Of a DNA stretch of 64,000 nt, positions 21,817 through 49,916 are shown one piece after another (positions within the stretch are counted from its first letter, which is position 1; the number at the start of each line of letters is the position of its first letter). Location: the NCBI GenBank assembly GCA_016234725.1, contig JACRAK010000012.1:10619-74618 (forward strand), read 5' to 3'. A program made the position numbers and the translations under genes. Source of the stretch: Candidatus Azambacteria bacterium (GTDB lineage: Bacteria > Patescibacteriota > Minisyncoccia > GWC2-36-17 > WO2-46-25). The notes under the pieces were generated by a model. It did no database searches and was not told the origin of the DNA. It saw only the letters and a program-made list of their open reading frames with translations.

Positions 21817-21848
21817 CCATATCTAGAAAAAAGACGGCATTTGATTGC
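21817..21848. terminator. Bidirectional terminator hairpin, near-copy of 14603-14632
   Basis: aaaaaagacggca-tttgat-tgccgcctttttt. Confidence 0.5.
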
Positions 21849-21871
21849 CGCCTTTTTTGCCGATGATTCTC

Positions 21872-21950
21872 TATTTCGCTGCCGTCAGTCACTTTTTGTA
21901 GCGGGGGAGTGCGCCGGAAACTATCTGCGCATATGTTTCTCGGAGGTGTT
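21872..21950. repeat. Conserved about 75-bp noncoding element, copy A
   Basis: about 88% identical to 24551-24624 (…cactttttgtagcgggggagt…ccggaaactatctg…atatgtttctcg.aggtgt.tggtc). Confidence 0.55.
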
Positions 21951-22080
21951 TGGTCATCGGACCTTCTTTTTGCTTGTTAAATACAACGCCGTCGATTTTC
22001 CCGATGCCGTTCACTTCCACCGCAGTGCCGCAAAAAACGCTTCATCGAATTTTTTATAGTAAGAAAAATAAAAACCCCGG

Positions 22081-22894: not shown

Positions 22895-23026
22895 TTAATA
22901 ATCAGTGCAGCAGTCTCCGTCAGGACAGTCGCAGTCACTACACTGACTCGTGCAATCGAGCAAGGTCTTGCTGGCGACTTCTGATTCAGCAAGAACCAAA
23001 ACTCGATTTTTATCTGTTGTTCCCAT
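22895..23026 (-). CDS. Cys-rich RiPP precursor candidate A (43 aa, six Cys; SCIFF/ranthipeptide-like)
   Basis: Manual ORF MGTTDKNRVLVLAESEVASKTLLDCTSQCSDCDCPDGDCCTDY*; perfect SD aaggaggtgatc; ATG directly abuts the rSAM stop. Confidence 0.6.
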   Translation of the reverse strand: MGTTDKNRVLVLAESEVASKTLLDCTSQCSDCDCPDGDCCTDY

Positions 23027-24115
23027 TTAGATCACCTCCTTTGTTTTGACATGCCCCCAAATTAACTGTAAGGCTTTAAGTTCAATTAATCGTGGAATCA
23101 TGATCTTAAAGAGTTTGCAGTATGGGGAAGAAGTGGTGGCTAGGTCATGAGCTCCAAAATTGATGACGGGACATCCGCCCCCACAAACAAGAGACCACTG
23201 GCAATCTTGACAGCCCTTGTAATCAAGCACATCTTTTGAATGTAGTTCGGGAAAAGTGTCTTGAGACCACGCCATTTCCAAAAAGGTTTTCTTGGTTTCA
23301 AGATTGCCTATCGGCTTTTTATCCATCCTTGCCTGGCAAACAAATACATTGCCGTTATGATCAACGGCTACGCCGGAATGGCCAAGATTGCACCCTCGTA
23401 AATGAGGCTTCCTATCGAGATGAATCTCGCACAGCTGTTGCGCGGCAACGGCGCTATGATTACGAATTGCAAGAGCGTAATAATCATAGCAATCATTAAG
23501 GGCGCTCGAAGCTTTTTTCATAAAGTCTTCGTATCCCTTAAAATCTCCTACATTATCCCGATATAGACCATAACGAAACGGAATGCTTGCATCAATCAAA
23601 AAACGGCTCAGCATAGGCACGCCGGAAATATTTCTATCCGTTATGGTTGTTAGTATCGTCGGGCGGACATCATTCCCCATGCATAAGTTCAGATTTTTGG
23701 CCACGACATCAAAAGAACCGGTGCCAGCGCCGAAGAAGCGTGTTTTGTTGTGCCACTCACCTAAACCATCTAACGACATACAGACCCTCACCGAGTTATC
23801 TTTAATCATCTTTATTAGATTAAGATCGAGCAGAGTCCCGTTTGTCAGTAAGATTAATTTAGCGCGAATACCTTTTTCTACGAATCGTTTCTGAGTCTGT
23901 TCGATCAAAAAATTAATCAACGTTTTATGCAGCGTGGGCTCTCCTCCAGCAAGACGTATTGTTACTAGGTCCAGACCGTGATGGCTTACAGTTTGTTCAA
24001 GCTTATCCAGATATAAGCTTGCTGTCTGAAAAGACATGAACTTTTTGTCCTTATTTATATAACAGTAAGGACATTTTAAATTACAGCAGTTGGCTATATG
24101 GAGCCATGTGCTCAT
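23027..24115 (-). CDS. Radical SAM/SPASM-domain peptide maturase A
   Basis: CNLKCPYC (CxxxCxxC) and C-terminal SPASM CQDCQWSLVCGGGC; start at MSTWLH (upstream TTG extension possible). Confidence 0.7.
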   Translation of the reverse strand: MSTWLHIANCCNLKCPYCYINKDKKFMSFQTASLYLDKLEQTVSHHGLDLVTIRLAGGEPTLHKTLINFLIEQTQKRFVEKGIRAKLILLTNGTLLDLNLIKMIKDNSVRVCMSLDGLGEWHNKTRFFGAGTGSFDVVAKNLNLCMGNDVRPTILTTITDRNISGVPMLSRFLIDASIPFRYGLYRDNVGDFKGYEDFMKKASSALNDCYDYYALAIRNHSAVAAQQLCEIHLDRKPHLRGCNLGHSGVAVDHNGNVFVCQARMDKKPIGNLETKKTFLEMAWSQDTFPELHSKDVLDYKGCQDCQWSLVCGGGCPVINFGAHDLATTSSPYCKLFKIMIPRLIELKALQLIWGHVKTKEVI

Positions 24116-24185
24116 GCCCTTAACATTGTTTTTTTCTAGACTAGGTCTAAACAGCGGAGCATCTTTTGGTTGAATAAGTCCGTTT

Positions 24186-24491
24186 TCAAGCAGAAGTTTT
24201 ATCCGTGGCAAATCTTTCTCGGTCTGAAAAAGGGACAGATTGTCTATAAAGAAGCTTAGTTCTCATGTCGAGCAGGACCACGCCTCTTTTGCTTCCAGGG
24301 ACAAGCGCATAACCATAGCCGTCTACTTCTCCTGTGTAACAATTACCCGTCTTTTTATATGCCTCTATTTCCCTCATTTTCTTTCCTCCGTAGGTTTTAT
24401 GATGTTGTAAAAGATCTTTTCGTATTTGTCTTTCTAATAACATAACAATAGCGTTTTTGTCAAATTCTTCATAAGAAGGGTTACTAATCAA
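24186..24491 (-). CDS. Hypothetical 101-aa protein upstream of rSAM A (non-ATG start)
   Basis: ORF with TTG start and no SD; possibly an accessory/RRE-like protein or not expressed. Confidence 0.2.
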   Translation of the reverse strand: MISNPSYEEFDKNAIVMLLERQIRKDLLQHHKTYGGKKMREIEAYKKTGNCYTGEVDGYGYALVPGSKRGVVLLDMRTKLLYRQSVPFSDRERFATDKTSA

Positions 24492-24529: not shown

Positions 24530-24550
24530 GTTCGCGTTTTTACTGTACAA

Positions 24551-24624
24551 CCGTCAACCACTTTTTGTAGCGGGGGAGTTTGCCGGAAACTATCTGGGTA
24601 TATGTTTCTCGCAGGTGTCTGGTC
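24551..24624. repeat. Conserved about 75-bp noncoding element, copy B
   Basis: see 21872-21950. Confidence 0.55.
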
Positions 24625-24686
24625 GTGGATCGGTAAGCATTGTAAATAAAAGACCTTTTGTGTAGGATACAAGCGAAAGGAAAACC

Positions 24687-25400
24687 ATGATCCCACGACT
24701 TGTCCAGCAAATCACCTATTGGCCGATATACCTCTTTTTTAAAGTGTTTTTTTGTTTTCGCGTGGAAGGACAGGAGAATCTGAAAGGACTGGAAGACAAG
24801 CCGGTTATTTTTGCGTCAAACCATGCAAGCTTTCTCGATGGTCCCATGTGTGCAGTGGCGATGCCGCGGGAAGGAATCGTACCAAAAAAGTTTTTTGCCA
24901 TGCGGTTTCTTGTCGCAAAAGAAGCGTTCGCGTTGGTAAAAAACGTCGTTCCGTTTCCCATATCTATAATCTTTGCGATCTATGTGCGTATGAATGGGGG
25001 CGTTCCCGTGGTGAGAGGCATGAACAATATTCAAAAAAATCTTGAGGAAGCAGTGAGGATACTTAGCAAGGGAACAAAAATGTGGATTTTCCCGGAAGGG
25101 AAACTGTCAAAAGACGGAACGCTTCAAAAAGGGAAGCGGGGCGTTGCCTATTTGCATCAAGCAACTAGCGCGGCTATTGTGCCGGTAGGGCTTATCGGCA
25201 CGTGTCGCATGCCTTCACAATTTTTTCGTTTCCAGCGTCCGTGCGTGACGGTGCGCATTGGCTTGCCAATGCATATTCCCGAAGGCGTTTCCTTGGAAGA
25301 GGGGACGGACATGATAATGAAGGAAATAGGACTGCTTCTTAGTGGCATGGCCACTTCATTGACCACGGCACGCGTAGAAAAAGCGCCATCAGCGATTTAA
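24687..25400 (+). CDS. plsC: 1-acyl-sn-glycerol-3-phosphate acyltransferase (PlsC family)
   Basis: NHASFLDG (HX4D) and FPEG motifs; putative promoter TTGTAA-17-TAGGAT at 24638-24666. Confidence 0.7.
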   Translation: MIPRLVQQITYWPIYLFFKVFFCFRVEGQENLKGLEDKPVIFASNHASFLDGPMCAVAMPREGIVPKKFFAMRFLVAKEAFALVKNVVPFPISIIFAIYVRMNGGVPVVRGMNNIQKNLEEAVRILSKGTKMWIFPEGKLSKDGTLQKGKRGVAYLHQATSAAIVPVGLIGTCRMPSQFFRFQRPCVTVRIGLPMHIPEGVSLEEGTDMIMKEIGLLLSGMATSLTTARVEKAPSAI

Positions 25401-25419
25401 ATTAGAAAATAAAAAGGCG

Positions 25420-25455
25420 GCGTAGGCGATAATTGAATCGCCGCCTTTTTATTTT
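25420..25455. terminator. Bidirectional terminator (aaaaaggcggcg…cgccgccttttt)
   Basis: GC stem with A/T flanks after plsC. Confidence 0.55.
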
Positions 25456-25465
25456 AGAATAACTC

Positions 25466-25561
25466 CACCCTCTTTTGTTTTTTGCCGACAGGATCAGAAA
25501 AACCGGGCGTGGCGGAAGTTATGGCGGAAAGCTTTGAAAAATAAAGGTTTTTTGGTATCAT
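25466..25561 (+). promoter_or_regulatory. Conserved regulatory element copy 1 (GGCGGAA-N5-GGCGGAA direct repeat + TTGAAA-N17-TATCAT promoter)
   Basis: Shares the core (a)tc(t/a)gaaaaaccgggcgtggcggaagttatggcggaaa(a/g)ctttgaaaaataaa with copies 2 and 3. Confidence 0.6.
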
Positions 25562-25567
25562 GAAAAC

Positions 25568-26587
25568 ATGAAGCTACGATTTATAACATCAAAAATAGAG
25601 AATCAATTCTTCTTTATCGCGAATCTTTCTGAATGGCATTTTTCATGTCGATTAGATTATAACCAGGCGTGGATCGAGGAAACAGGAGCATTGAGCAATG
25701 AAGAGAAAAGGAAGCTCAAAGTCTTCGCAAGTATCTTGCAGAAACATGGATTTACTTACGATAAGAATGGAAAAACAAAATACATCGGTAAATATTTTTA
25801 TTGTTATTCGGAGGAAAAAGCATGGGAAGAATTGGGAAAAAATATTACCAAAAAAGAGGCCCTAAGAATAAAAAATGTTTTTAAGATTTTTGAACCACGA
25901 TTTGAAAAAACATGGAACCCGCAAGAGCTCGCGGCAAGAGTAAAAACAATACAAAGTTTTACAAAAGAAAAAAGATGGAAGGAGCTCGTGCAGCGCGTAA
26001 ATATATTATTTGGGGGGCCTGCCATAACAAAAAAGATTTTTATTGTTGTCTTGATTTCTCCTCTGGCAGGAGAAGGAGTGACGGCTGCCGGTAGCGCAAA
26101 TAACGGAGATCAATGCATAACATACGAGATTCCCAAATTAAAAAATGGAGGGTGGGAGCGTGATTATTCTATGGGAGTTTTAGCTCACGAGATCGCTCAC
26201 GCGTTGTTTTCTAAAAAAGGCGGCGAAAAAGAGATTGCAAAGATTATTAAAAAAGAAAATATTCCTGCGCATATAAAAGGATTCCCCACGAGCGCTGTTT
26301 CTGTGATTAACGAGGCCATTACAGAGAGCTTTATTCCCCTCGGCTACCTTGGTCAAAAATATGCTGGGAGAGACCTCGCTCCGTTATTGTTAGATAATAG
26401 CGATAAAGGATGGCTCACAGAAGAAAAGACAAAGAAAGAGAGAGGAATTAATTACCGCAATATAAGAAAATATCTTATCTGGCAATTGTATCCTCTTGCT
26501 GTTATATATGGACGACAAAGTAAATCCATCGATGCATATTTTATCAGGCAGGCAGTATTATTACTGAAAAATGCGCTCGGCAAATAA
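25568..26587 (+). CDS. HExxH-motif putative metallopeptidase (paralog, module B)
   Basis: 339 aa; GVLAHEIAHALF … VINEAITESF. Confidence 0.4.
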   Translation: MKLRFITSKIENQFFFIANLSEWHFSCRLDYNQAWIEETGALSNEEKRKLKVFASILQKHGFTYDKNGKTKYIGKYFYCYSEEKAWEELGKNITKKEALRIKNVFKIFEPRFEKTWNPQELAARVKTIQSFTKEKRWKELVQRVNILFGGPAITKKIFIVVLISPLAGEGVTAAGSANNGDQCITYEIPKLKNGGWERDYSMGVLAHEIAHALFSKKGGEKEIAKIIKKENIPAHIKGFPTSAVSVINEAITESFIPLGYLGQKYAGRDLAPLLLDNSDKGWLTEEKTKKERGINYRNIRKYLIWQLYPLAVIYGRQSKSIDAYFIRQAVLLLKNALGK

Positions 26588-26601
26588 AAAAAAGGCAACC
26601 G

Positions 26602-27681
26602 TTAGGGTGCCTGTGGTATTGCCGATGCTTTTTGGAGAAAAAGCTTGATGTAGTCGAACATCCTTTTTCTTGTCTCGCAAAAAGGGTAGTCTCCGCCATA
26701 GTTTCCTGTCGCCCAGTAGGAGTCGGCTCTGCATCCGCCACGACAAATTGCTACATATTCGCAACGGCCGCATTTTTCAGCATTGTGATTGCTTCTTATT
26801 TCAGCGAGCGCCTTAGTTTTTGATCCCGCTAAAGCATTGATCAGTGATTGGCTGAGGATGTTACCAAGCATAAACCTCTCTTCCACCAATGAACCACAGG
26901 GAACGATGTTTCCTTCTTGATCAATGGTGATCATTTTCTTTAAGCAAGAGTTAGCAAAGGAGCACCCTCTCGGTCTCTGGCCAAGAAGCGAGCGCATCAT
27001 TGTGTCGAGCGGCTCGATTGAGGGAAAAGAGTTTTCCGTATGCGCCCAAAGATCGAATACGTCCTTATAGAAAGCAAACATTTCATCGTTTGAGGGCATT
27101 ATCGGTCTTTCTGAAAGTGGCACGCTTTTTAGAGGCAGCAAGCCAAATGAGTTCACGCCGAGAGCTTCATAGAAATGAAATATCTCTTTGGCGCGAGAAA
27201 CATTTAGTTTACTTATAACAGAAAGAACACCAAGAGGCATGCCAGTCGCTTTTATTTCTGCGCAAGTTCTTAATAGCGCACTTATATCAGAGCGGCGATG
27301 AGCTATGTATACATCTGTTGGCGCATCAAGACTAATCCCCACATGGAAATCATTCTTTTGAAGAAAATCAATCCACGAGGCATCCAGCAAGAGGCCGTTT
27401 GTTTGGATGTTGTTGTGATATACAATGCCTCTTTTTTCCGTTTCCTCCTTCTGGGCATTTATTACTTCTTGATAAAAATTTTTACCAACAAGAAGCGGTT
27501 CGCCGCCATGCCAGCAGAACTCGACACTGTCAAAGCCGATGGAGGCATTATGAATCATAACCCTGATGTTTTTTATCTCGAACTTTTTTATGTTTCTTCG
27601 AGAGGCGCGTGAGTAACAATACACGCACTGAATGTTGCAGTCAGATCCCGTGATCATGATGATCGTCATGGCTTTCTTCAT
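26602..27681 (-). CDS. Radical SAM/SPASM-domain peptide maturase B
   Basis: CNIQCVYC and SPASM CGRCEYVAICRGGC. Confidence 0.7.
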   Translation of the reverse strand: MKKAMTIIMITGSDCNIQCVYCYSRASRRNIKKFEIKNIRVMIHNASIGFDSVEFCWHGGEPLLVGKNFYQEVINAQKEETEKRGIVYHNNIQTNGLLLDASWIDFLQKNDFHVGISLDAPTDVYIAHRRSDISALLRTCAEIKATGMPLGVLSVISKLNVSRAKEIFHFYEALGVNSFGLLPLKSVPLSERPIMPSNDEMFAFYKDVFDLWAHTENSFPSIEPLDTMMRSLLGQRPRGCSFANSCLKKMITIDQEGNIVPCGSLVEERFMLGNILSQSLINALAGSKTKALAEIRSNHNAEKCGRCEYVAICRGGCRADSYWATGNYGGDYPFCETRKRMFDYIKLFLQKASAIPQAP

Positions 27682-27756
27682 AAAATTCGCTCCCGTGTTT
27701 TTTTGAATGCGGATGTGGAGGGAGGGGGTATTTACTACCCCCTCCTGTTCGAGCTA

Positions 27757-27939
27757 TTACTTGGTGCTGGCGTCGCGATAATGATCGTGCGACGGTTGAT
27801 CGACCCAGTGATCGTGTTTCATGCTCAGCGAGTCACCGTTTTTAATCTTGGCAGTCGCTTGAGTAATGATCTTTTGCACGGGTCCGGATATGCAGACGCC
27901 TGACATATCCTTAACATGACTATCGATTCCGCGTTCCAT
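27757..27939 (-). CDS. 60-aa candidate precursor peptide B (His/aromatic-rich C-terminus)
   Basis: SD aaggagggtaaat-ATG; MERGIDSHVKDMSGVCISGPVQKIITQATAKIKNGDSLSMKHDHWVDQPSHDHYRDASTK; hairpin GGAGGGGG…CCCCCTCC between it and rSAM B. Confidence 0.45.
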   Translation of the reverse strand: MERGIDSHVKDMSGVCISGPVQKIITQATAKIKNGDSLSMKHDHWVDQPSHDHYRDASTK

Positions 27940-28100
27940 ATTTACCCTCCTTTCTTTGAGTTTTCAGCCCATTAGATGGCTGAAATTGGGGTTTCCATTA
28001 ACGAAATTATTAAAGGACATAACAAGCGCATATATACGCTTTTCCCTTTATGATGTCAACGCCCTGTGTATGCCGCGCCCTGTATGACACTGTATGGCAA

Positions 28101-28238
28101 GTTTAAGAAACTACGCAACCACTCAAAACATATTTTATCACCCAACAACCCCATTGTTTTTAAAGATAATCTGAAAAACCGGGCGTGGCGGAAGTTATGG
28201 CGGAAAACTTTGAAAAATAAAATTGTTTTTGATATGAT
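28101..28238. promoter_or_regulatory. Conserved regulatory element copy 2 between divergent promoters (rSAM-B operon on - ; HExxH c on +)
   Basis: about 125 bp about 90% identical to copy 3; -35 TTGAAA 28210-28215, -10 TATGAT 28233-28238; minus-strand TTGACA-17-TATATA at about 28020-28050. Confidence 0.6.
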
Positions 28239-28264
28239 GGAGAGGGAAATTAAACAAAGAAACA

Positions 28265-28978
28265 ATGAGCACCCCGCGTGTTATATTTTCTTACAATCAG
28301 GAAAAAGATATCAAAAACATTCAAATTGGACTTGATACTGTGAGTCGCGGCAGACAACCAGATAGAGAGCTTGTACAAATTATCCAGCAATACGGCAGCG
28401 CGCCATCAGAAGAAGACATCAAGGAATATTTAATTTCTCGATGGAAGAATAAAAGGGGTGTCCCTGACCTTATCGTAAAACAACTCCAAGAATATTGGGA
28501 CACAATAGAAGAAAAATATTTTAATCATCTTGCAGATCGAATGCAGCTCACGTCCTTTCATGGAATTAAACAGCTAGGCGGTTTTTTAAGTGTGCGTTAC
28601 GGAAGCGGTTATAATACTGAACAACAATGGTTTGCGGTAAGTGTGTATAATAGCACCCTAAAGAACACATTAACGGCAATGCATGAGATCATGCATATTT
28701 TTTTTCATAAACAATGGTGGGATTTTTGCAAAAAACAAGGATTGCCCGATAACAATATATGGGATGTAAAAGAATCAATGACGGTGCTTTTAAATTTGTG
28801 GTTTAAAAATCAGGTTATTGATACTGATTGGGGATATGATGAGCACGCCGAGCTTCGCCGTTTCATTATAGATTGGTTTTTGGAAACGAGAGATTTTAAA
28901 AAAACATTGGAAAGGGCGTGTATATATATGAAAGAACACTCAGAAAAAAGCCCTGATTGGATAACCAATCAGGGCTAG
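28265..28978 (+). CDS. HExxH-motif putative metallopeptidase (paralog, module C)
   Basis: 237 aa; TAMHEIMHIFFHK … ESMTVLLNLWF. Confidence 0.45.
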   Translation: MSTPRVIFSYNQEKDIKNIQIGLDTVSRGRQPDRELVQIIQQYGSAPSEEDIKEYLISRWKNKRGVPDLIVKQLQEYWDTIEEKYFNHLADRMQLTSFHGIKQLGGFLSVRYGSGYNTEQQWFAVSVYNSTLKNTLTAMHEIMHIFFHKQWWDFCKKQGLPDNNIWDVKESMTVLLNLWFKNQVIDTDWGYDEHAELRRFIIDWFLETRDFKKTLERACIYMKEHSEKSPDWITNQG

Positions 28979-29002
28979 TTTGCTGATGTAAAACACCAGC
29001 TT

Positions 29003-29155
29003 TTAGGAGCCATCGCAGCCGTCTGTGCCGCCGTGACATCCTGACTGGCATACGTTGCAGCCGCTGTTGTCACAGGTGCCACCGCTGTTGTCGCATGCGG
29101 CTAGTACGGTAGTAGCCGACGATCCTTCAATGAGCGAAGAAAAAGCGAGCTTCAT
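29003..29155 (-). CDS. Cys-rich RiPP precursor candidate C (50 aa, seven Cys)
   Basis: Manual ORF MKLAFSSLIEGSSATTVLAACDNSGGTCDNSGCNVCQSGCHGGTDGCDGS*; perfect SD aaggaggtgattg; downstream of rSAM C on same strand. Confidence 0.6.
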   Translation of the reverse strand: MKLAFSSLIEGSSATTVLAACDNSGGTCDNSGCNVCQSGCHGGTDGCDGS

Positions 29156-29226
29156 AACAATCACCTCCTTATTGGGAGTTTCTGTGTTTTGCTGACTCCT
29201 TCCCAGTGAGTAGCAAGTGGGGGTGT

Positions 29227-30534
29227 TTACACCACCAGCTCCAAAACATTTCTGCTGATAAGCTCGCTAAGAAAATGCAGATATTTTGCATTTTCCATAG
29301 AGATTTTATACATAGCGCGAAGAGATTTTGGAGTGAACGACAGTTTTTTGATGTGAATGTCTTCTATGAGATTCAGTGTCTCGTGCTCCACGAAGGTGTT
29401 TTTAATGCCACTCGTGTTGATTATCCCTAATGGTTCATCTCGGCGAAAGCGACAAGCTCTTCTTACGCGGAGCACCGTGTTGTTCTTAAGAAGCGCATGT
29501 GTTTTTGGAACCGCGCGTTTTTGAGCCATTTGTGCTCTCATGATCGAGTCTTCACCGTGAACATCGCCATTAAGGGAGGCGACTCGGCAGCCACCACCAC
29601 ACATAGCGACAAGCTTACAGGAAAGACAGGCCCGAGGAAGAAGAGATCCGTCACGCCACTGAACCATTTTTAACCAAATGGATTTCAAATCTTCAGTGGA
29701 AAGAGATCCATAAGCGATTTCGTGGTGGGGGCATGCGCGCACCGATCCATCTGAAGCAATGGCGATGGACGTTTTACCAGCAGAACAGGTTCGCTGACCA
29801 AGGAGGGAATAAGCATCGTCGTTGTCGAAAAAACAGATGGGGTAGGGAACGAGAGAGTCTAATTGCATGCCAGTGGTTTTCAGATCAAGTAGCTGGTCAA
29901 CAATTAAACCGACGCTTTTTATTGGAAGAGCGAGTTCCTTTGAAGACTGTTTGTTTGGTAAGCGCGGAGATGTAACGCGTGTCGCAGAAAATGCTACCAC
30001 CCCAAGCTTATGTGCAAACTCGCCAGTTTTTTTCACATCTAGCAGGTTTTGCTCCATTACAACCATATTTACAGCGGTGCGGATGCCGGCGGCATGAGCA
30101 CACTCAATACCCCGCACGATACGCTGAAAAGATCCTTTTGTGCCGGAAAGAGAATCGTGGGTATTGGAATCATACGATAAGAGCGATGTTAATATTGTTC
30201 GGAGTCCCACCGAAAAAAGCTCCTTTGCAATTTTTTCAGTAAGTAGAACAAGGTTTGAATTTAGGCTGAACGAGATTTTCCTCTTCGAAAGTTCCTTAAT
30301 GAGAAAAATAAGTTCGCCCTTATTTAGAAGTGGTTCTCCTCCTGTAAGTATGACGTGGAAAATCTTGTGGGCAGCAAGTTGCTCAGCAATTCGAATCGAC
30401 AACGCCTCCGAAATGCTTTTATTTGGAACTAATCCATCGTCTCGCCAAAAATTGTAGCAGTGGAAACATTTTTGGTTGCAGCCAGTATTGATTTCAACAT
30501 GAGCAGCTAGTGGAGCATCAAGCGTTTTATACAT
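29227..30534 (-). CDS. Radical SAM/SPASM-domain peptide maturase C with C-terminal PqqD-like (RRE-like) extension
   Basis: CNQKCFHC; SPASM CLSCKLVAMCGGGC; C-terminal about 110 aa …KKLSFTPKSLRAMYKISMENAKYLHFLSELISRNVLEL resembling PqqD/RRE; SD aaaaggaggctgtt. Confidence 0.7.
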   Translation of the reverse strand: MYKTLDAPLAAHVEINTGCNQKCFHCYNFWRDDGLVPNKSISEALSIRIAEQLAAHKIFHVILTGGEPLLNKGELIFLIKELSKRKISFSLNSNLVLLTEKIAKELFSVGLRTILTSLLSYDSNTHDSLSGTKGSFQRIVRGIECAHAAGIRTAVNMVVMEQNLLDVKKTGEFAHKLGVVAFSATRVTSPRLPNKQSSKELALPIKSVGLIVDQLLDLKTTGMQLDSLVPYPICFFDNDDAYSLLGQRTCSAGKTSIAIASDGSVRACPHHEIAYGSLSTEDLKSIWLKMVQWRDGSLLPRACLSCKLVAMCGGGCRVASLNGDVHGEDSIMRAQMAQKRAVPKTHALLKNNTVLRVRRACRFRRDEPLGIINTSGIKNTFVEHETLNLIEDIHIKKLSFTPKSLRAMYKISMENAKYLHFLSELISRNVLELVV

Positions 30535-30646
30535 AACAGCCTCCTTTTGTTTTTAAAGCTCTTCCTCGACATATCAATAATGCACGAGGTTTATTAATAA
30601 AAACATTAATACATTTATATTAATTTGTCAATACATTATGGAGCGG

Positions 30647-30786
30647 TTTCAAGAAACTAACGCAACCCCTCAAAACATATTTTATCACTCACCAGCCCCC
30701 TTTGTTTTTTAAAGATAATCTGAAAAACCGGGCGTGGCGGAAGTTATGGCGGAAAACTTTGAAAAATAAAGGTTTTTTGGTATGAT
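30647..30786. promoter_or_regulatory. Conserved regulatory element copy 3 between divergent promoters (rSAM-C operon on - ; MTase/HK on +)
   Basis: Same 125-bp element; -35 TTGAAA 30759-30764, -10 TATGAT 30781-30786; minus-strand TTGACA-17-TAATGT about 30600-30630. Confidence 0.6.
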
Positions 30787-30822
30787 AACCTTGTTCTCAC
30801 TATTTATACTAAAAAGAAATAT

Positions 30823-31695
30823 ATGCACGATCTCGAAAATATTAAAATTATTATTGATAGCGATCGTAAGCTTTATGAAATTCATAGTTTCATAAGGAAA
30901 ACAATCGATATTTTTTTAGTCCCAATCTTAAATAGATTGCCACGTGGTTTATTTAGGAAATCAAGCAAAAAAGCAGAAACAGTGAATAAGCATGCAACAA
31001 CCCATAGAGCATTAGAAGTGATTTATTCGTTTAACAACCAGGTAAATTTCGAAAAAGGCATCTTCGACGGGTTTTTTACTTATTTTTGGCAGAAAACCAG
31101 TCATGCTAAGGCTTTAAGAAATCGGCTTAAATTAGTAAAGAGAGAGCTCTTAAAAGCAATACATTCTCTAAATAAAAAGGAAATAAAAATACTGAATCTT
31201 GCGTGTGGTTCAAATAGAGCGGTTATAGAGGTTGTGGGAATGCACAAAAACGATTTCGATTTTAAGGTATTTGGGATGGATAAAAATGAAAGCGCGATCG
31301 AAGATGCGAAAGCATTAACAACCGCTTTTGATGTTGACCATCTGTTTAGCTGGCATCAAAATACGGTTTCCGGTTTTTTAAAAGAGGCGGAGCAAGCCCA
31401 GTTTGATATAGTAGAGATGGTTGGATTTTTGGATTATGTGCCGGACGAGAAAGCCGTTTTTTTGTTTGATCAAATTTATTCAGTTCTGGCTGACGGCGGC
31501 TTCTTCATCACAGGGAATATAAAAGATAATAAGGAAAGAAGATTTGTTACCGAGGTGGTTGGTTGGCCGCATCTTATTTTTCGTAGCGAGAATGACCTTG
31601 CGAGAATATTGAAGCAATCCAAATTTAAAGACGCAGCTACCCATATCGTATACGAACCGCACAATATCCACGGAGTGGTAGTGTGTAAAAAATAA
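30823..31695 (+). CDS. Putative class I SAM-dependent methyltransferase
   Basis: ILNLACGSNRAV (motif I-like) and LADGGFFITG (post I/II). Confidence 0.4.
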   Translation: MHDLENIKIIIDSDRKLYEIHSFIRKTIDIFLVPILNRLPRGLFRKSSKKAETVNKHATTHRALEVIYSFNNQVNFEKGIFDGFFTYFWQKTSHAKALRNRLKLVKRELLKAIHSLNKKEIKILNLACGSNRAVIEVVGMHKNDFDFKVFGMDKNESAIEDAKALTTAFDVDHLFSWHQNTVSGFLKEAEQAQFDIVEMVGFLDYVPDEKAVFLFDQIYSVLADGGFFITGNIKDNKERRFVTEVVGWPHLIFRSENDLARILKQSKFKDAATHIVYEPHNIHGVVVCKK

Positions 31696-31704
31696 ATCCG
31701 TTTT

Positions 31705-33882
31705 GTGTTCTATTTTATAGCAACGTCTTTAGTAAATGCTTTTATTGCCGGCTTGCTCGGATTCCTTGTCATTTCAAAAAATTGGAGGGATCTCGCGAAC
31801 AAGTTATTTTTTGGACTTAGCATTTCTGTTGTCTTCTGGGCATTAAATTATTGGCAATGGCTTTCTTCTCAAAACGCAAATTCCGCGCTGGTTTTTTCAC
31901 GGCTATTTTCGGTAGGAGCTCTTTTTATTCCCATTTTTTATTTTCATTGGGTTCTTATTTTCAGCGGAACAAACAAACAATACAAGACATTTCTTAAAGT
32001 TTTATATTTCATCGCTTTTGTTTTTCTTTCCCTTTCCTTCTCAAAACTATTTATCGAAGGAGTGGGGCAAAAACTTTTTTTCCCTTTTTGGCCAACCCCC
32101 GGAATTCTTTACAATATCTATTTAATTGTTATCTATTTTGGACTCACGATCTATTCTTTGTTTATTCTCTGGAGGAGTTATATTCGTAGTAATGACAGCC
32201 ATCAGAAAGCAATCATTAAATATATCATATTGGGATCCTTCATTGGGTTTAGCGGGGGAGCAACAAACTTTTTCTTATGGTACGATATCCCGATTTTGCC
32301 GTATGGAAATATTCTTGTTAGTTTCTATCCCTTAGCTCTTGCTCTCGCCAGCTTCCGGCACGGCCTTTTCAACATCAAGGTCATCGCCACAGAATTGCTG
32401 ACGCTCACTGTCTGGATCGCGGTATTGGTTGAATTGATATTAGCTGAAACATGGGAAAAGCGGCTTTTGGAAGCGGGGTTGTTGGCGTTCGTGGTGGTGT
32501 CCGGTATTTTTATTATCCGCAGCGTGTTGAAGGAGGTTGAGCAGAAGGACAAGTTTAAAGATTTATCAGAACGACTGGAAAGCGCGAATGCGCAGCTTAA
32601 ACAAAAAACGCTGTATCTGACGACATTACAGGGGTTTACGCATGACATCGGCAGGACGCTTGATTTTAAGGAGATCACTCAAAAGATCGTTGACGGCATT
32701 TCGGAAAAATTTGGGTATCTTGCCGGCCTGCTTCTCTTGGTGTCCGAAGACGGCAAGATGATCTTTCCCGTTACTATCACGGAGAACACGATCACGAAGA
32801 TCGCGCTTAAGATATTGCCAAAACAGATGCATGAATATGCCGGCGATTTTGAGCATGACGATACGCTATCGATCCGGGCGGTCAAGGACAACGCGATACA
32901 GCAAAGCAATGCCATAGCCGATTTTCTCAGCCCGCCGATCTCCGAAACGCTGTGCGTGACGATCCAGAAGGCAACCGGGCTGAAATCCGGCGTAGCGATA
33001 CCGATACGCTCTGAAGGGAAGGCGATCGGCGTACTCGATATTTTTCTTGATCGGCCGAAAGAAGAGATAGGAGGCGACGAGCTCGAGGTGATGAAAACGC
33101 TTGCAAACCAGATCGGCATCGTACTCAAAAATGCATCGCTGTTCGAACAAGTGAAGGAAGCAAACGAAAAGCTGAAAGAATTGGACGATCTGAAAACGGA
33201 CTTTATTTCCATCGCGTCGCATCAGTTGCGTACGCCGCTCACGGCGATCAAGGGGTATACCTCTATGATCATGGAAGGGTCATACGGCGAGGTGTCTGAT
33301 AAAGTGAGAGTAACAATAGGAAAGGTGTTTCAATCCGCCCAGCGCCTTATTTATATCGTGAATGACTTGCTTGATATTTCCCGTATCGAGCAGGGGCGGT
33401 TTACCATTGCGCTTGAGCCGATAAAGGTGGCGAATGTGCTGAAAGATGTGGTGGAGGAGCTCCAGCAGAATGCAAAAAGCAAGAACCTTTCACTTGAGCT
33501 TGCGGTAGCACCGGAAAATATGGAGGTAACGGCGAGCGCCGACTTTAACAAGATACGGCAGGTGTTTTTGAATGTGATCGACAATGCGATCAAATATACC
33601 AACGAAGGATATGTGCGCGTGGGAGTTGAGAAGAGAGCGAATGATGTGCTTATGTCCGTAAAGGATTCCGGCATCGGTATTTCAGAGGCAAGCATGAAGA
33701 ATCTGTTCCAGAAATTCAGCCGGGCAAAAGGCGTGACAAAGCTCCATACCGACGGCTCCGGCCTCGGGCTCTTTATCGTCAAGAAGATCATGGAAGCCCA
33801 TGGCGGCACCGTGTGGGCGGAATCGGAAGGCGAAGGCAAGGGCTCGCAGTTTTATGTTTCCATCCCTTTGCAAAAGGAGTAG
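31705..33882 (+). CDS. Sensor histidine kinase with N-terminal 7TM domain, GAF-like region, HisKA and HATPase_c
   Basis: 7 hydrophobic helices; H-box SHQLRTPLTAIKGY; N/G1/G2 boxes; AT-rich 5' half vs GC-rich 3' half. Confidence 0.75.
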   Translation: MFYFIATSLVNAFIAGLLGFLVISKNWRDLANKLFFGLSISVVFWALNYWQWLSSQNANSALVFSRLFSVGALFIPIFYFHWVLIFSGTNKQYKTFLKVLYFIAFVFLSLSFSKLFIEGVGQKLFFPFWPTPGILYNIYLIVIYFGLTIYSLFILWRSYIRSNDSHQKAIIKYIILGSFIGFSGGATNFFLWYDIPILPYGNILVSFYPLALALASFRHGLFNIKVIATELLTLTVWIAVLVELILAETWEKRLLEAGLLAFVVVSGIFIIRSVLKEVEQKDKFKDLSERLESANAQLKQKTLYLTTLQGFTHDIGRTLDFKEITQKIVDGISEKFGYLAGLLLLVSEDGKMIFPVTITENTITKIALKILPKQMHEYAGDFEHDDTLSIRAVKDNAIQQSNAIADFLSPPISETLCVTIQKATGLKSGVAIPIRSEGKAIGVLDIFLDRPKEEIGGDELEVMKTLANQIGIVLKNASLFEQVKEANEKLKELDDLKTDFISIASHQLRTPLTAIKGYTSMIMEGSYGEVSDKVRVTIGKVFQSAQRLIYIVNDLLDISRIEQGRFTIALEPIKVANVLKDVVEELQQNAKSKNLSLELAVAPENMEVTASADFNKIRQVFLNVIDNAIKYTNEGYVRVGVEKRANDVLMSVKDSGIGISEASMKNLFQKFSRAKGVTKLHTDGSGLGLFIVKKIMEAHGGTVWAESEGEGKGSQFYVSIPLQKE

Positions 33883-33924
33883 GTAGCATTGGTTATTTTA
33901 TAAAATAAAACCCATATTAAGTAT

Positions 33925-34947
33925 ATGAATACACTAAACAGGAAATATAAAGCCGGGGTTATTGGCCTCGGCCATCAATCTTTGGAGGATCATATTCCCG
34001 CTATTAAGGCGTCTCCCGATGTTGAATTAGTAGGTGTGGTCGAGGTAGATGAACAGAAGTTAAAATCGTTTCTTGAAGAAAACAAAGATATAGATGGTTA
34101 TAATAATATAGATGATTTTTTAAAAAACAAACAACCAGATTTTATTGTCATTACTGTCCCGCACCACCTGCATTATGAAATAGTAAAAAAGGCAACGGAA
34201 AGAAGAATTCACATTCTTAAAGAAAAGCCATTCGCTATTTCCTTTGAACAAGGAAAGGAAATAAAAAAATTGGCAGAAAAAACCGAGACCCAGATTATGA
34301 TTACCCTCCAAAGAAGATTTAATCCAATATATTCTACTTTTTTTCAATTAATAGATAAGATTGGCGAACCCTTTTTTATTGAATCAAAATATACTTTTTA
34401 TACTGATTCGCCGCATGAAGGGTGGAGGGGGAGAAAAGATTTAGCTGGAGGAGGGTGTTTAATAGATATGGGGTATCATGCGATTGATCTTTTGATGTGG
34501 TATTTTGGGTTGCCTGATTTAGTTTTTGCTGAAACATCGTGTGCAGCAAAAGAAAATACTTGTTACGATGCGGAGGATACAGCACAAATCACTTTTCGCT
34601 ATAATAGTGAAAAGAATATTTTTGGTTCGCTTCTTGTTTCACGGGTAATCCCTCCAAAGCAAGAGTTTATAAATATATATGGTACAAGGGGAATTATCCA
34701 TATTGAGAGAGGAAAAATTGAGAGGTATGCTTCAAATGGCGAAACGCAAGAGGCTCTCAAAAGGGAGCAGCAATGGTCATCAGCGGCGCAAGATCAGATC
34801 GAATATTTTTTGAAGGTAATAGAAGGAAAAAAAGAAAATCTAAGTAATCCAGAGTTTCATTTACAACACCTCGCCTTTATTGAAGCAGCATATAAAGCAA
34901 GAGAATCGAAACAATATATAAATCCAAAAAAATATCTGGAAAAATGA
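33925..34947 (+). CDS. Gfo/Idh/MocA family NAD(P)-dependent oxidoreductase
   Basis: N-terminal Rossmann GVIGLGHQ…; family-typical length. Confidence 0.65.
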   Translation: MNTLNRKYKAGVIGLGHQSLEDHIPAIKASPDVELVGVVEVDEQKLKSFLEENKDIDGYNNIDDFLKNKQPDFIVITVPHHLHYEIVKKATERRIHILKEKPFAISFEQGKEIKKLAEKTETQIMITLQRRFNPIYSTFFQLIDKIGEPFFIESKYTFYTDSPHEGWRGRKDLAGGGCLIDMGYHAIDLLMWYFGLPDLVFAETSCAAKENTCYDAEDTAQITFRYNSEKNIFGSLLVSRVIPPKQEFINIYGTRGIIHIERGKIERYASNGETQEALKREQQWSSAAQDQIEYFLKVIEGKKENLSNPEFHLQHLAFIEAAYKARESKQYINPKKYLEK

Positions 34948-36206
34948 AAAAGGAAAAACAAAAACTTGCAATTTTAGGAGGATCTCCAACTATAAAAAGC
35001 AAGAGGTCTCATTATCAATGGCCAAAGATAACAAAAAGTATAGAGAAAGCAGTTATAAAGCAGCTTTATGAAGGCATTTCCATATACGATAAAAGCGGCA
35101 TCTTTGAAAGGTTTGAGGAGAATTTTGCTAAGTATCACGAAAGAAAGTATGCGCTATTATGCAATTCTGGCACAACAGCGATTCACTCGATGTTTGTTGC
35201 TGCTGGATTCAAACAAGGAGATGAGGTAATTTGTCCAGCTTACACATTTTTTGCTACGGTAACCCCTCTTTTATTTGTTGGTGCAAAGCCAATACTTTGT
35301 GATTGTGATGAAAACGGGAATATAGATCCAGGGGAAATTAAAAAGAAAATCAATTCAAAAACTAAGGGAGTGGTTATAACCCATATGTGGGGGATTCCTT
35401 GCCAAATGGATGAGATTGTAAAAATTTGCAAAAAAAATAAATTACTGTTATTAGAAGACTGTTCTCATGCGCATGGAGCAACATATAAAAGCAAACCTCT
35501 CGGCTCTTTTGGTGATTTAGCAGCATGGAGCCTTCAGGGGTTAAAAAATGTGAGTGGTGGAGAGGGTGGAGTTCTTGTCGCAAATAATGATGAATTCTAC
35601 TATAAAGCACTCCTCCTTGGGCATTACAATAAGCGATGCAAGCAAGAGATTCCCAAAACACATAAATTTTATAAATATGCAATAACAGGCATGGGATTAA
35701 AATACAGAGCTCATCCTCTTGCGATTGCCATTGCATACAATGTGTTTAAAGACCTAGATGCTTATAGGAAAATTAAAAATAAATTTGCTTTAAAAATAAT
35801 AAAAGAGCTTAGAAGCATAAATGGCCTTGCTGCTCCAAAAATAAAATCAGGGGTCACTCCCTCTTGGTATGCGCTCGTGTTTCAATATAAGAAGGATAAG
35901 TTTCAAGATCTTCCCATCGAGAAAATTTTTAGTGCTTTCCAAGCAGAAAACCTAACAGAAGTGGATCGTCCAGTATCAACCGCCCCTCTTAATCTTTTAC
36001 CCCTATTTCAAAGCCCTGAAGAGTTGTTTCCTGTCTATAAAAATAATCTGTTTTCGTATAAACCGGGAGATTTCCCGCGCGCGGAAAATTTTTATCACAA
36101 CGCAATCAAACTTCCCTTATGGACAAGTAAGAAAGACGCAAAAATGGTAGCTATGTATATAAAAGGAATCAAAAAAGTTATTAAAAATTATAGAAAATTA
36201 CTATGA
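34944..36206 (+). CDS. DegT/DnrJ/EryC1/StrS family PLP-dependent sugar aminotransferase
   Basis: …DLAAWSLQGLKNVSGGEGG (Schiff-base Lys region), fold-type I pattern. Confidence 0.65.
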   Translation: MKKEKQKLAILGGSPTIKSKRSHYQWPKITKSIEKAVIKQLYEGISIYDKSGIFERFEENFAKYHERKYALLCNSGTTAIHSMFVAAGFKQGDEVICPAYTFFATVTPLLFVGAKPILCDCDENGNIDPGEIKKKINSKTKGVVITHMWGIPCQMDEIVKICKKNKLLLLEDCSHAHGATYKSKPLGSFGDLAAWSLQGLKNVSGGEGGVLVANNDEFYYKALLLGHYNKRCKQEIPKTHKFYKYAITGMGLKYRAHPLAIAIAYNVFKDLDAYRKIKNKFALKIIKELRSINGLAAPKIKSGVTPSWYALVFQYKKDKFQDLPIEKIFSAFQAENLTEVDRPVSTAPLNLLPLFQSPEELFPVYKNNLFSYKPGDFPRAENFYHNAIKLPLWTSKKDAKMVAMYIKGIKKVIKNYRKLL

Positions 36207-36646
36207 ATCAGAAAAAAATTGTACAAAAAGTCGTTCTTGCAGGAGTAGTGATGAATGAAGGGAAAATTTTAATTCTTCAAAGGCATAGTGGTGAAGACGT
36301 ATATCCGGGTATATGGGAATTGCCAAGTGGAAAAAGAGAAGCTCTTGAGCTATCTGAGGAGTCTCTTGCTCGCGAGGTGAAGGAGGAAAGCGGTCTTGAC
36401 ATTAAAATTATTTCGCCTTTTTCCATGTTTGATTATCAAATTGAAAAGCCCGATGAAATTCGCGATTCAACTCAAATAAATTTTCTTGTGATTCCAATTA
36501 ATAACCCCGAGGTTATTTTAAGTTCTGAACATCAGGCATTTGTATGGATTGGGGTTGATGAAATTGACAGATATGATATTACTGAAGACACAAAAAAAGT
36601 TATTAAAAAAGGATTTGAGTTTGCTCTATTGTTAAAATTAGTATAA
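36203..36646 (+). CDS. NUDIX hydrolase
   Basis: Nudix box GKREALELSEESLAREVKEESGL. Confidence 0.65.
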   Translation: MNQKKIVQKVVLAGVVMNEGKILILQRHSGEDVYPGIWELPSGKREALELSEESLAREVKEESGLDIKIISPFSMFDYQIEKPDEIRDSTQINFLVIPINNPEVILSSEHQAFVWIGVDEIDRYDITEDTKKVIKKGFEFALLLKLV

Positions 36647-37314: not shown

Positions 37315-37379
37315 TAATTCCATCAAAAAAGCATTTATAAAAGAAACAGCGCAATAATTTTGTTATTGCGCTGTTAAAA

Positions 37380-37841: not shown

Positions 37842-37957
37842 GATCGCCTCCTTTATGTGTGACTAATTTTTTAAAGATCGTCTTACGTGCTACAATACCC
37901 CCAAACACCGAGGTCTGTCAATCATTAAAAACTGGAAAAGTTTATTAATACATCATT

Positions 37958-49427: not shown

Positions 49428-49476
49428 TGCCGTTGCGTATTACTGATAACTACCGGTTGTTCCGGTGGTGTATTTG

Positions 49477-49850: not shown

Positions 49851-49916
49851 CAACATCCCCGAAACTATAAAACATAAAACATGGAACTTGAAACATAAAA
49901 CTAAAAGATTCAAGTT

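Follow-up and report, generated by a model that had tools for sequence, protein, structure and literature searches.

The window analysed here is a 64-kb stretch of a CPR 'Candidatus Azambacteria' MAG, in which a family of repeats lies between an acyltransferase gene and an operon encoding a methyltransferase and a 7TM histidine kinase (Table 1). Two radical-SAM/SPASM RiPP units make up the insert between these genes, each opening with a zincin-like HExxH gene that is a putative leader peptidase, and each sitting between copies of a promoter region. CPR RiPP loci that combine SPASM maturases with zincin peptidases and a UbiE-like methyltransferase have been described (Biol Direct 2022, PMC8939145), and the island studied here has the same kinds of genes: its radical-SAM enzymes are of the SPASM type, its methyltransferase is UbiE-like, and its two zincin-like HExxH proteins are distinct from each other. 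Unlike the ATP-grasp (graspetide) loci in that paper, the window's units have no ATP-grasp gene, and promoter repeats are not described in the paper's passages on those loci.

Table 1. Features of the repeat locus, in window coordinates
Feature	Position	Strand	Remarks
Acyltransferase gene	24687-25400	+	part of presumed left ancestral flank 24687..25460
Acyltransferase terminator hairpin	25401-25460	+	presumed left ancestral flank
Copy 1	25466..25561	+	presumed ancestral position, directly past acyltransferase terminator; heptad block + core promoter
GGCGGAA-GTTAT-GGCGGAA, copy 1	25511..25529	+	unit TGGCGGAA repeated, 12-bp period
Predicted promoter 1	25534..25561	+	TTGAAA, 16-nt spacer, TGgTATCAT
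Unit 1	25568..28100	both	also found in L051, L034
HExxH gene, 339 aa (unit 1)	25568-26587	+	
rSAM/SPASM maturase, 359 aa (unit 1, rSAM359)	26602-27681	-	
Precursor candidate, 60 aa (unit 1)	27757-27939	-	
Predicted minus-strand promoter of unit 1	28059-28031	-	
Copy 2	28101..28238	+	A2 (28101-28166) + heptad block + -35, then native 237-aa-gene -10/5' UTR
GGCGGAA-GTTAT-GGCGGAA, copy 2	28187..28205	+	exact pattern match
Predicted promoter 2	28210..28238	+	TTGAAA, 17-nt spacer, TGaTATGAT
Unit 2	28221..30631	both	collinear with L031 8114-10521
Zincin-like HExxH gene, 237 aa (unit 2)	28265-28978	+	
Cys-rich precursor candidate, 53 aa (unit 2)	29003-29164	-	
rSAM/SPASM maturase, 435 aa (unit 2, rSAM435)	29227-30534	-	
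Predicted minus-strand promoter of unit 2	30631-30603	-	
Copy 3	30647..30786	+	A2' (30647-30715) + heptad block + core promoter
GGCGGAA-GTTAT-GGCGGAA, copy 3	30736..30754	+	proximal heptad ends 4 nt before -35
Predicted promoter 3	30759..30786	+	TTGAAA, 16-nt spacer, TGgTATGAT
Class I SAM methyltransferase	30823-31695	+	presumed ancestral downstream operon 30823..33882
HisKA_7TM-GAF-HisKA-HATPase histidine kinase	31705-33882	+	second gene of that operon

The first-pass annotation had described three copies of a promoter region, of which copies 2 and 3 are alike over the full element and copy 1 shares the core only, and this description holds. Exactly three copies are present. A repeat search returned one direct-repeat family of three members (25481-25553, 28157-28229 and 30706-30778; 84-100% identical) and a second family made up of copies 2 and 3 only (28113-28161 / 30660-30708, 86%); by blastn-short, copy 3 is 92.5% identical to copy 2 over 120 nt and 98.4% identical to copy 1 over 62 nt. 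In every copy, GGCGGAAGTTATGGCGGAA occurs without mismatch and is followed, 4 nt on, by TTGAAA-16/17-TGnTAT(G/C)AT, and the likeness among the three stops directly past the -10 hexamer. When the 64-kb window was searched with a profile of the three copies, no fourth emerged (the next hit had E = 0.46), and related loci contained no further copies. The element was also absent from 185,579 representative genomes and the JGI metagenome collection, where all matches were due to chance.

The assignment as a promoter region for plus-strand genes is likewise upheld by the near-consensus -35, the extended -10 and the conservation of the core in a relative. Over the 10.5 kb scanned (21.5-32 kb), the copies contain the three top-ranking sigma-70-like sites, with TTGAAA, a 16/17-nt spacer and TAT(C/G)AT (10/12 matches) and an upstream TG in each. 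Furthermore, the core is 100% identical over 35 nt to the orthologous promoter of L039, the closest syntenic relative, whereas coding DNA there is only 78-83% identical. Promoter activity and transcription start sites are predicted from these motifs. Copy 1 would now drive the 339-aa HExxH gene, for which a leaderless mRNA is predicted, since its ATG (25568) falls 6 nt past the -10. Promoter 2 is a hybrid of a methyltransferase-type -35 and the native 237-type -10, and promoter 3 is identical to the L039 methyltransferase promoter. The layout also agrees with the claim that copies 2 and 3 sit between divergent promoters: TTGACA-17-TATATA and TTGACA-17-TAATGT, which lie outside the rules of the promoter scan, are readable on the minus strand. 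A mini-ORF present in all copies, which had been considered probably incidental, is indeed so: it lies upstream of the -10 and has no ATG in L039. Its sequence has AGC in copy 1 vs AAC in copies 2 and 3.

In L039, the promoter region is single-copy. The gene order in L039/L040 is acyltransferase, one 170-bp spacer, methyltransferase (an 87% orthologue), kinase, NUDIX, GrpB and ArgS. By blastn, window 24537-25345 corresponds to L039 8975-9768, window 25529-25571 and 30754-33883 both match L039 starting at 9935 (the latter to 13061), and window 25572-30753 has no L039 match; the extra DNA between acyltransferase and methyltransferase amounts to 5.2 kb. The upstream flank of copy 1 matches L039 (31/38 terminator columns identical), and copy 3 runs on without a break into the methyltransferase-kinase operon's orthologous 5' UTR. 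From about 28222 onward, copy 2 gives way to the -10 and 5' UTR that are native to the 237-aa gene, the change to the L030/L031 type falling between 28222 and 28238. Unit 2 is 83% identical to its L031 counterpart, which there adjoins an intact class IV aminotransferase gene; this homology ends at the minus-strand TTGACA (30626-30631), and the unit 1-type flank (A2) comes next. At the L051 locus, A2 is the native right flank of unit 1, which adjoins an aminotransferase gene there and in L034 stands behind a 237-like gene. In addition, one plus-strand promoter family, TTT(G/C)A(A/T)AAA(A)TAA..GGTTTTT(T)G(G/A)TAT(G/A)AT, precedes the methyltransferase in L039, the 237-aa gene in L030/L031 and the 339-aa gene in L051.

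Duplications are seen elsewhere in the window as well. A duplicated aminotransferase 3' end (21882-21955 / 24551-24624) flanks an rSAM394 cassette, and a 4.1-kb block that is not in L039 lies between duplicates of the kinase 3' end (33772-33866 / 37957-38051). Between the same aminotransferase-fragment repeats, L031 and L039 carry differing cassettes.

The repeat, the synteny, the positions of the junctions, the pattern of conservation across species and the absence of RNA structure were all observed directly. With a probability of roughly three in four, one ordinary promoter region was triplicated when two peptide-modification units recombined into it. In this model, the element would be the native promoter region of the methyltransferase/7TM-histidine-kinase operon, made up of an extended -10 promoter of the sigma-70 type together with the preceding 45 bp or so. 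The two RiPP units would have recombined into the acyltransferase-methyltransferase spacer to leave three promoter copies, with junctions inside promoter sequence common to resident and incoming DNA (the plus-strand promoter family and the minus-strand TTGACA hexamer), which would explain why each unit is flanked by a copy. The second event would also have duplicated about 65 bp of the right flank of unit 1 (A2), thus accounting for the greater length of copies 2 and 3. The two other duplication-flanked blocks have the same signature and lend support to this model. We infer an insertion here rather than a deletion in L039 through repeat recombination; it is parsimony that favors the former. 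However, copies 2 and 3 do not differ at any of 42 positions in the heptad block but at 10/69 in A2 (P about 0.0014 at the A2 rate). This unevenness is not explained by a single neutral duplication, and gene conversion or selection on the core must be added.

It had been postulated that the element is a conserved regulatory one and that its GGCGGAA-N5-GGCGGAA repeats form the site of a winged-helix response regulator. This part of the first-pass annotation is not supported, given that the copies are paralogous duplicates of one ancestral intergenic region and that the heptad block lacks conservation in the L039 orthologue of the promoter. There, it is about 40% identical (16-17/40) with a 12-nt gap, lacking one 12-nt unit and any GGCGGAA, and has diverged like neutral spacer (spacer 15/40, core promoter 19/19). 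With up to 2 mismatches allowed, the pattern matches the window only at 25511, 28187 and 30736, all exactly; three matches were reached in 1/100 shuffles. GGCGGAA shows no enrichment once duplicates are collapsed and no strand bias. The heptads are private to this genome and lack comparative support as a regulator-binding site. The motif is a 12-bp unit repeated once (TGGCGGAAGTTA / TGGCGGAAAACT), which probably arose in this lineage before the triplication and was then copied along with the promoter. It should be noted that there is one alignable orthologous methyltransferase promoter, L039-L042 carrying identical sequence, so that the heptads could instead have been lost in the L039 lineage. 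It is also conceivable, if unlikely, that a regulator encoded outside the window (a response regulator or other) binds the two units at about -57/-51 and -45/-39 and thereby co-regulates the two HExxH genes, the methyltransferase-kinase operon and possibly the divergent rSAM operons. An operator role is compatible with the duplication origin but unproven. The invariance of the block between copies 2 and 3, with 1-2 differing positions in copy 1, would fit selection, although gene conversion among the three copies explains it equally well. The block is GC-rich and lies directly upstream of the -35, where orthologous promoters of the same family have a different GC-rich block (TACCACGCCGCGCAAACCCCNCGAA in L030 and L051), as would fit fast-evolving operators; moreover, a 7TM histidine kinase is conserved beside these RiPP units in several CPR lineages. 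Yet the three sites descend from one ancestor without independent recurrence, no receiver-domain protein is encoded within the 64-kb window, and the kinase operon of the distant relatives L044/L045 carries a protein with a receiver domain only. Tandem winged-helix binding does not typically go with a period of 12 bp, and that of OmpR/PhoB operators is typically 10-11 bp. The spacing from the element to the minus-strand -35 is also unequal, at 41 nt for copy 2 vs 20 nt for copy 3. Finally, given the 5/6 -35 and the extended -10, the promoter need not depend on an activator.

Other explanations have less in their favor. The core might be a recombination site, homologous or site-specific, for the capture of RiPP cassettes, generating an integron-like array in which units inherit promoters. 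Promoter sequence does bound the units on both sides with junctions in promoter homology, one promoter family has different genes downstream in different genomes, two other insertions in the window are flanked by 75-95-bp local duplications, and cassettes differ between the same aminotransferase-fragment repeats in L031 vs L039. This idea is nevertheless improbable: the units have no integrase or recombinase, the sole transposase-like ORF (IS200-like, 184-915) is 24 kb off, the three repeat families have no common core, GGCGGAA is neither enriched nor strand-biased, the sample is a handful of loci, and ordinary RecA-dependent recombination at short homologies suffices. An assembly artefact, in which a repeat common to separate loci misled the MAG assembler into joining them so that the tandem array is unreal, is very improbable. 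What speaks for it is the identity of the core over about 56 nt or more, within which contigs break in an independent short-read assembly (Logan, SRR12113407) with the same units; such breaks are also expected if the repeat is true. These contigs confirm the junction sequences, and the unit order itself is taken from the MAG assembly. However, each copy has distinct flanks (A1, A2 or A2' to the left and a different downstream sequence to the right of each), the substitutions private to copy 1 go with the 339-aa gene in the independent assembly as well, and even a wrong order would leave three copies. Least probable of all is the reading as a MITE-like miniature mobile element or as a gene or leader for a structured RNA, despite the intergenic, multi-copy nature and size (about 80-140 bp) of the element. 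No terminal inverted repeats or target-site duplications were found among the copies, no further copies are dispersed elsewhere in the window, related loci or public collections, there is no Rfam match, and folding z-scores are -0.94 to +1.49 on both strands; furthermore, the likeness ends at the -10, placing the conserved part upstream of the predicted transcript. This reading is largely refuted.

The proposed promoter triplication by insertion resembles the attL/attR ends of genomic islands and Campbell-type single-crossover integration, in which local direct repeats also flank inserted DNA, the relative's empty site is single-copy and the inserted units occur at other loci elsewhere. Unlike in those systems, the units have no integrase, a promoter region takes the place of a tRNA or gene 3' end as the duplicated sequence, the junctions fall within promoter homology, and the array of three copies would have come from two successive events. 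Repeated promoters with direct repeats bound by LytTR response regulators occur in the class II bacteriocin/quorum-sensing loci blp, pln, com and agr; there, repeats of about 9 bp are spaced by 12 bp, giving a 21-bp period, are conserved across species and have an adjacent LytTR regulator. The locus studied here is similarly devoted to peptide biosynthesis, with several near-identical promoter modules, repeats just upstream of the -35 and a histidine kinase encoded alongside, but its units are 8 bp with a 12-bp period and private to one genome, it has no regulator gene, and its kinase is of the HisKA_7TM-GAF type. In the pho box, an OmpR/PhoB-type operator, 7-bp direct repeats recur every 11 bp and abut or replace the -35. 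Here, heptameric direct repeats are also found immediately upstream of the -35, but their period is longer, the -35 is intact and near consensus, the orthologue does not conserve the repeats, and a winged-helix regulator was not found. If the promoter region was triplicated as proposed, copies of the kinase operon's promoter would now drive both HExxH genes, which consequently may share whatever input the kinase promoter receives.

The three promoter elements (copies 1, 2 and 3) found upstream of + strand genes in the window are paralogues that go back to a single ancestral promoter region, and the positions of their junctions and their pattern of conservation across species are observed directly. 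A three-copy element had been proposed by the first-pass annotation, and it was recovered by a repeat search of the window (see the table), by blastn-short and by pattern matching. Reads of run SRR12113407, assembled independently, yield these genes as well, on contigs whose ends fall within the part of the core that is repeated exactly. Copy 3 is 92.5% identical to copy 2 over 120 nt and 98.4% identical to copy 1 over 62 nt (blastn-short), and similarity among the copies ends right after the -10 hexamer. A motif search of the 64-kb window, with up to two mismatches allowed, finds GGCGGAA-N5-GGCGGAA exactly three times, each time as GGCGGAAGTTATGGCGGAA and each time within a copy. What repeats is in fact an octamer, TGGCGGAA, with a period of 12 bp. 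Tandem Repeats Finder calls neither this 12-bp unit nor a CTGTATG triplet elsewhere in the island, both being too short for it; both were read straight from the sequence. Searches with an nhmmer profile of the three copies detected no fourth copy in the 64-kb window and no weaker copies there or in related loci.

Positions of the promoter copies, neighbouring genes and other repeats (window coordinates unless a related locus is named)
Feature	Position	Strand	Remarks
Copy 1	25466-25561	+	
Copy 2	28101-28238	+	
Copy 3	30647-30786	+	
Repeat family 1, three direct copies	25481-25553, 28157-28229, 30706-30778	+	repeat search of window
Repeat family 2, copies 2 and 3 only	28113-28161 / 30660-30708	+	86% identical
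Unit 1	25568-28100		339-aa HExxH gene, rSAM359, 60-aa precursor
Unit 2	28221-30631		237-aa HExxH gene, 53-aa precursor, rSAM435
Radical-SAM/SPASM maturase	23027-24211	minus	candidate precursor 22895-23026
Radical-SAM/SPASM maturase	26602-27681	minus	candidate precursor 27757-27939
Radical-SAM/SPASM maturase	29227-30534	minus	candidate precursor 29003-29164
339-aa HExxH protein	behind copy 1	+	no Pfam family
237-aa HExxH protein	behind copy 2	+	no Pfam family
Class I SAM methyltransferase, then HisKA_7TM-GAF histidine kinase	behind copy 3	+	
CTGT(G)TATG, three times	28064-28096		CTGTGTATG, CTGTATG, CTGTATG
D2, last ~95 nt of histidine-kinase gene	33772-33866 / 37957-38051		96% identical
Block between D2 copies	33884-37956		4.1 kb
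D3, two class IV (ilvE-like) aminotransferase 3' ends	21882-21955 / 24551-24624	minus	relics 21827-22056, 24537-24626
D4, 61-nt direct repeats	106-166 / 950-1010		90%; around ORF 184-915
tmRNA gene, full-length	49474-49860	minus	Rfam RF00023, 129 bits
Methyltransferase/HisKA_7TM kinase pair beside RiPP genes, related loci	L037 4986-10702; L044 1-5916; L050 1196-5519; L039 5695-13060		
Duplicated intergenic segments in L037	7627-7660 / 9852-9885; 9756-9823 / 10993-11060		

A consensus scan of the region from 21.5 to 32 kb returned, as its three best sigma-70-like sites, those inside the copies, each with TTGAAA, a 16/17-nt spacer and TAT(C/G)AT (10/12 matches) and all three with TG ahead of the -10. 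Sigma-70 promoters of the extended -10 class are recognized by hexamers near TTGACA and TATAAT, a 16-18-bp spacer and a TG placed one base ahead of the -10. Furthermore, a + strand ORF starts 6-36 nt downstream of every copy, and the core promoter is 35/35 identical to that of L039, the closest syntenic locus in a relative (blastn-short). The earlier promoter reading is thus borne out in hexamers, spacer, position and orientation, and orthologue conservation, and each copy is likely to be an active sigma-70-type promoter. Judged from sequence, the element would act as an ordinary promoter of the housekeeping type, and it is present several times through insertion-associated segmental duplication. 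At window 25556-25570, and likewise at 2628-2642 in the related locus L051, which has a 72% orthologue of the 339-aa HExxH gene, 6 nt separate the -10 hexamer from the ATG, so that a leaderless mRNA without a Shine-Dalgarno sequence is predicted for this gene, which is probably expressed in that form.

The methyltransferase gene of the window has an 87% orthologue on L039, a 55-kb groundwater contig, and three other loci (L040-L042) have the same sequence. The order on L039 is acyltransferase, one 170-bp spacer, the methyltransferase-kinase operon, NUDIX, GrpB and ArgS, a backbone common to the window. Both window 25529-25571 (the copy 1 promoter) and window 30754-33883 (copy 3 and the operon) align by blastn from L039 position 9935, and the sequence between them, 25572-30753, has no L039 counterpart in the same search; therefore, 5.2 kb of extra DNA lies inside what is one promoter region in L039. 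This DNA is bounded by copies of that region, in the order copy 1, unit 1, copy 2, unit 2, copy 3, and the orthologous site in L039, L040, L041 and L042 has one spacer, one promoter and no insert. A single-copy empty site, together with direct repeats that bound DNA found at other loci, is what characterizes insertion-associated segmental duplication, and the element is a new instance of an event of this established kind rather than a novel regulatory element.

Both inserted units are found elsewhere. Unit 2 is collinear with L031 8114-10521 (83%), where it adjoins an intact class IV aminotransferase gene; unit 1 also adjoins a class IV aminotransferase gene in L051 and is located behind a 237-like gene in L034. 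The left flank of copy 1 is the ancestral acyltransferase terminator. Copy 2 changes at 28222-28238 to the -10 and 5' UTR of the 237-aa gene as these occur in L030 and L031, and the TTGACA hexamer on the minus strand (30626-30631) is the exact point at which the homology of unit 2 with L031 stops. The sequence that follows this hexamer, the left part of copy 3 (A2'), is a copy of the native right flank of unit 1, judged from L051, and because of this, copies 2 and 3 share ~65 nt beyond copy 1. The resident methyltransferase promoter (TTTGAAAAATAAAGGTTTTTTGGTATGAT) is visibly similar to the promoters native to the 237-aa and 339-aa genes (TTTCATAAAATAACGGTTTTT(T)GATAT(G/A)AT), a similarity that probably served as the substrate for recombination. 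In this model of the island's history, the units would have entered by recombining within promoter sequence that both sides had in common, and the two putative leader-peptidase genes would now be subject to whatever regulatory input reaches the promoter of the kinase operon.

It had also been postulated that the heptad block, GGCGGAA-N5-GGCGGAA and its surroundings just upstream of the -35, has the geometry of an operator for a winged-helix response regulator. Copies 2 and 3 differ at 10 of the 69 aligned columns of their left parts (A2 and A2') vs 0 of the 42 nt of the heptad block, a result that argues for an operator: the probability of zero differences in the block at the A2 rate is ~0.0014, and a Fisher test of A2 against the heptad block plus -35 region gives p = 0.022. 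The block has therefore been either selected within this genome or homogenised by gene conversion. Conversion is plausible because the core has three copies and A2 only two; the identity fits either process, and these data do not separate them. However, the block is not conserved in the orthologous promoter. Compared with L039, identity is 31/38 in the terminator segment, 15/40 in the spacer segment and 16-17/40, with a 12-nt gap, in the heptad block, vs 19/19 in the core promoter, a pattern that points to strong constraint on the core promoter between species and to a heptad block that has diverged like unconstrained spacer. At the heptad position, L039 has GGGAGAATGGCCG and CGTCAAGAAAC on the two sides of the gap, with one 12-nt unit missing and no GGCGGAA; the native 237/339 promoters have another GC-rich block there, TACCACGCCGCGCAAACCCCNCGAA, and heptad-like repeats are absent from the more distant methyltransferase promoters of L044 and L050.

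The geometry does not fit well either. OmpR/PhoB winged-helix operators have tandem direct repeats about one helical turn (10-11 bp) apart, whereas in every copy the two units start 12 bp apart. In addition, no cognate DNA-binding regulator is encoded in the 64 kb: tblastn, together with Pfam searches of 10 candidate ORFs, found no receiver domain there, the L044 receiver query alone being fully reliable since the CheY, PhoB and Spo0F queries were approximate; a regulator may be encoded elsewhere in the genome. The L044/L045 operon, by comparison, continues with a 134-aa protein whose sole Pfam match is Response_reg. Pho-box-type operators are alike in having direct repeats in a promoter, but repeat period, orthologue conservation and an associated regulator are not matched. 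Bacteriocin quorum-sensing loci resemble the island in their repeated promoters bearing direct repeats; LytTR bacteriocin-locus promoters have two ~9-bp direct repeats with ~12 bp between them (21-bp period) and an adjacent LytTR regulator. The window, in contrast, has 8-bp units at a 12-bp period and no regulator gene in 64 kb. Given all of these findings, it is unlikely that the heptad block is an operator. Still more doubtful is the fuller proposal that a new operator was born by a 12-bp duplication in the kinase-operon promoter and was copied to two RiPP leader-peptidase genes at cassette capture, so that a signal-responsive CPR regulon was enlarged by promoter duplication, not by de novo sites, with promoter modules doubling as RiPP-island recombination joints.

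Several other identities were rejected. A cis-regulatory or small RNA is not indicated, as the element region has no Rfam match, neither strand has a stable fold (z-scores of -0.94 to +1.49 vs shuffled sequence), and what is conserved precedes the -10. A MITE or dispersed mobile repeat, a scattered mobile repeat being what the first-pass annotation had named as a refuting outcome, was looked for in the window, related loci and public collections, with no terminal inverted repeats, target-site duplication or dispersed copies found. A relic of a gene 3' end, like D2 and D3, is not supported, since six-frame translation yields only a 16-codon open stretch to the mini-ORF stop and no homology was found to back it. 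GGCGGAA occurs 15 and 6 times in the window vs 9.8 and 5.3 expected, falling to ~10 on the + strand with duplicates collapsed, and so is not enriched as a Chi-like hotspot common to three repeat families would be. A sigma-54 reading of TGGC-N8-TGGC fails because the GG/GC spacing is off by one from the consensus and the elements are followed by a good sigma-70 promoter. Elsewhere, GGCGGAA-N5-GGCGGAA-N4-TTGAAA has 28 matches in 185,579 representative genomes, ascribed to chance, their flanks being only 16-41% identical to the element and most looking coding; the single match to TGGCGGAA-N4-TGGCGGAA-N4-TTGAAA in a metagenome collection lies inside a coding region and is likewise ascribed to chance.

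The island has three mutually dissimilar candidate precursors beside three different SPASM maturase types. The 43-aa and 53-aa candidates are Cys/Asp-rich, ending in CTSQCSDCDCPDGDCCTDY and CDNSGGTCDNSGCNVCQSGCHGGTDGCDGS, respectively, and the 60-aa candidate has a His/Asp/Trp-rich tail. CPR RiPP loci described in PMC8939145 pair SPASM maturases with a UbiE-like methyltransferase and two zincin peptidases, and the gene content of the window island agrees with this. The methyltransferase and HisKA_7TM kinase pair adjoins RiPP genes in four related loci, its neighbours being either rSAM/SPASM cassettes or an MvdD-type ATP-grasp, a 37-aa ORF and DUF6624; in L044/L045, a receiver-only protein and FtsZ come after the pair. 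Its presence beside RiPP genes in several CPR lineages suggests that the kinase and the peptides are linked in function and that this link is conserved.

Other duplications are seen in the window and in relatives. The CTGT(G)TATG repeats sit just ahead of the -35 from which the 60-aa precursor/rSAM359 operon on the minus strand would be transcribed, and the L051 flank has a single CGCTGTAGAGG; given this private expansion, small tandem duplications occur in this lineage's spacers. The D3 aminotransferase relics bracket the rSAM394 cassette, and no intact aminotransferase gene was noted in the window. In L031 this pair of fragments likewise surrounds the rSAM394 cassette, and in L039 it encloses another one; it thus looks like a recurrent insertion site. 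The block between the D2 copies, absent at this position in L039, has ORFs whose translations indicate a putative GFO/IDH-like oxidoreductase, DegT-like aminotransferase, NUDIX protein, thymidylate-kinase-like protein and GreA. With duplicated junctions also at D2 and D3, the region is a plastic island, and insertions into it regularly leave the sequence at their junctions duplicated. The ORF within D4 has an IS200-like Y1 transposase domain, and a 479-aa ORF lies immediately downstream of the second D4 copy. The duplicated segments of L037, a distant relative, lie around its rSAM cassette and its HExxH gene and are unrelated to the window element; one is a 68-nt terminator-plus-promoter module (96% identity). 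Islands of this type may therefore often have junction or promoter modules in duplicate.

Since the three near-identical elements are one promoter copied thrice by rearrangement, they are no independent evidence for a binding site. Neat direct repeats in near-identical intergenic elements resemble the signature of a regulon, and caution is needed because paralogous copies are not independent motif evidence. If the heptads were nevertheless an operator, they would provide a clear case of regulon growth by promoter duplication. What the comparison offers is a base-pair-level example of RiPP island assembly in uncultivated Parcubacteria (CPR), in which units are bounded by promoters, junctions lie in shared promoter sequence, and peptidase genes that come in are brought under promoter copies from a conserved methyltransferase/7TM-kinase operon.
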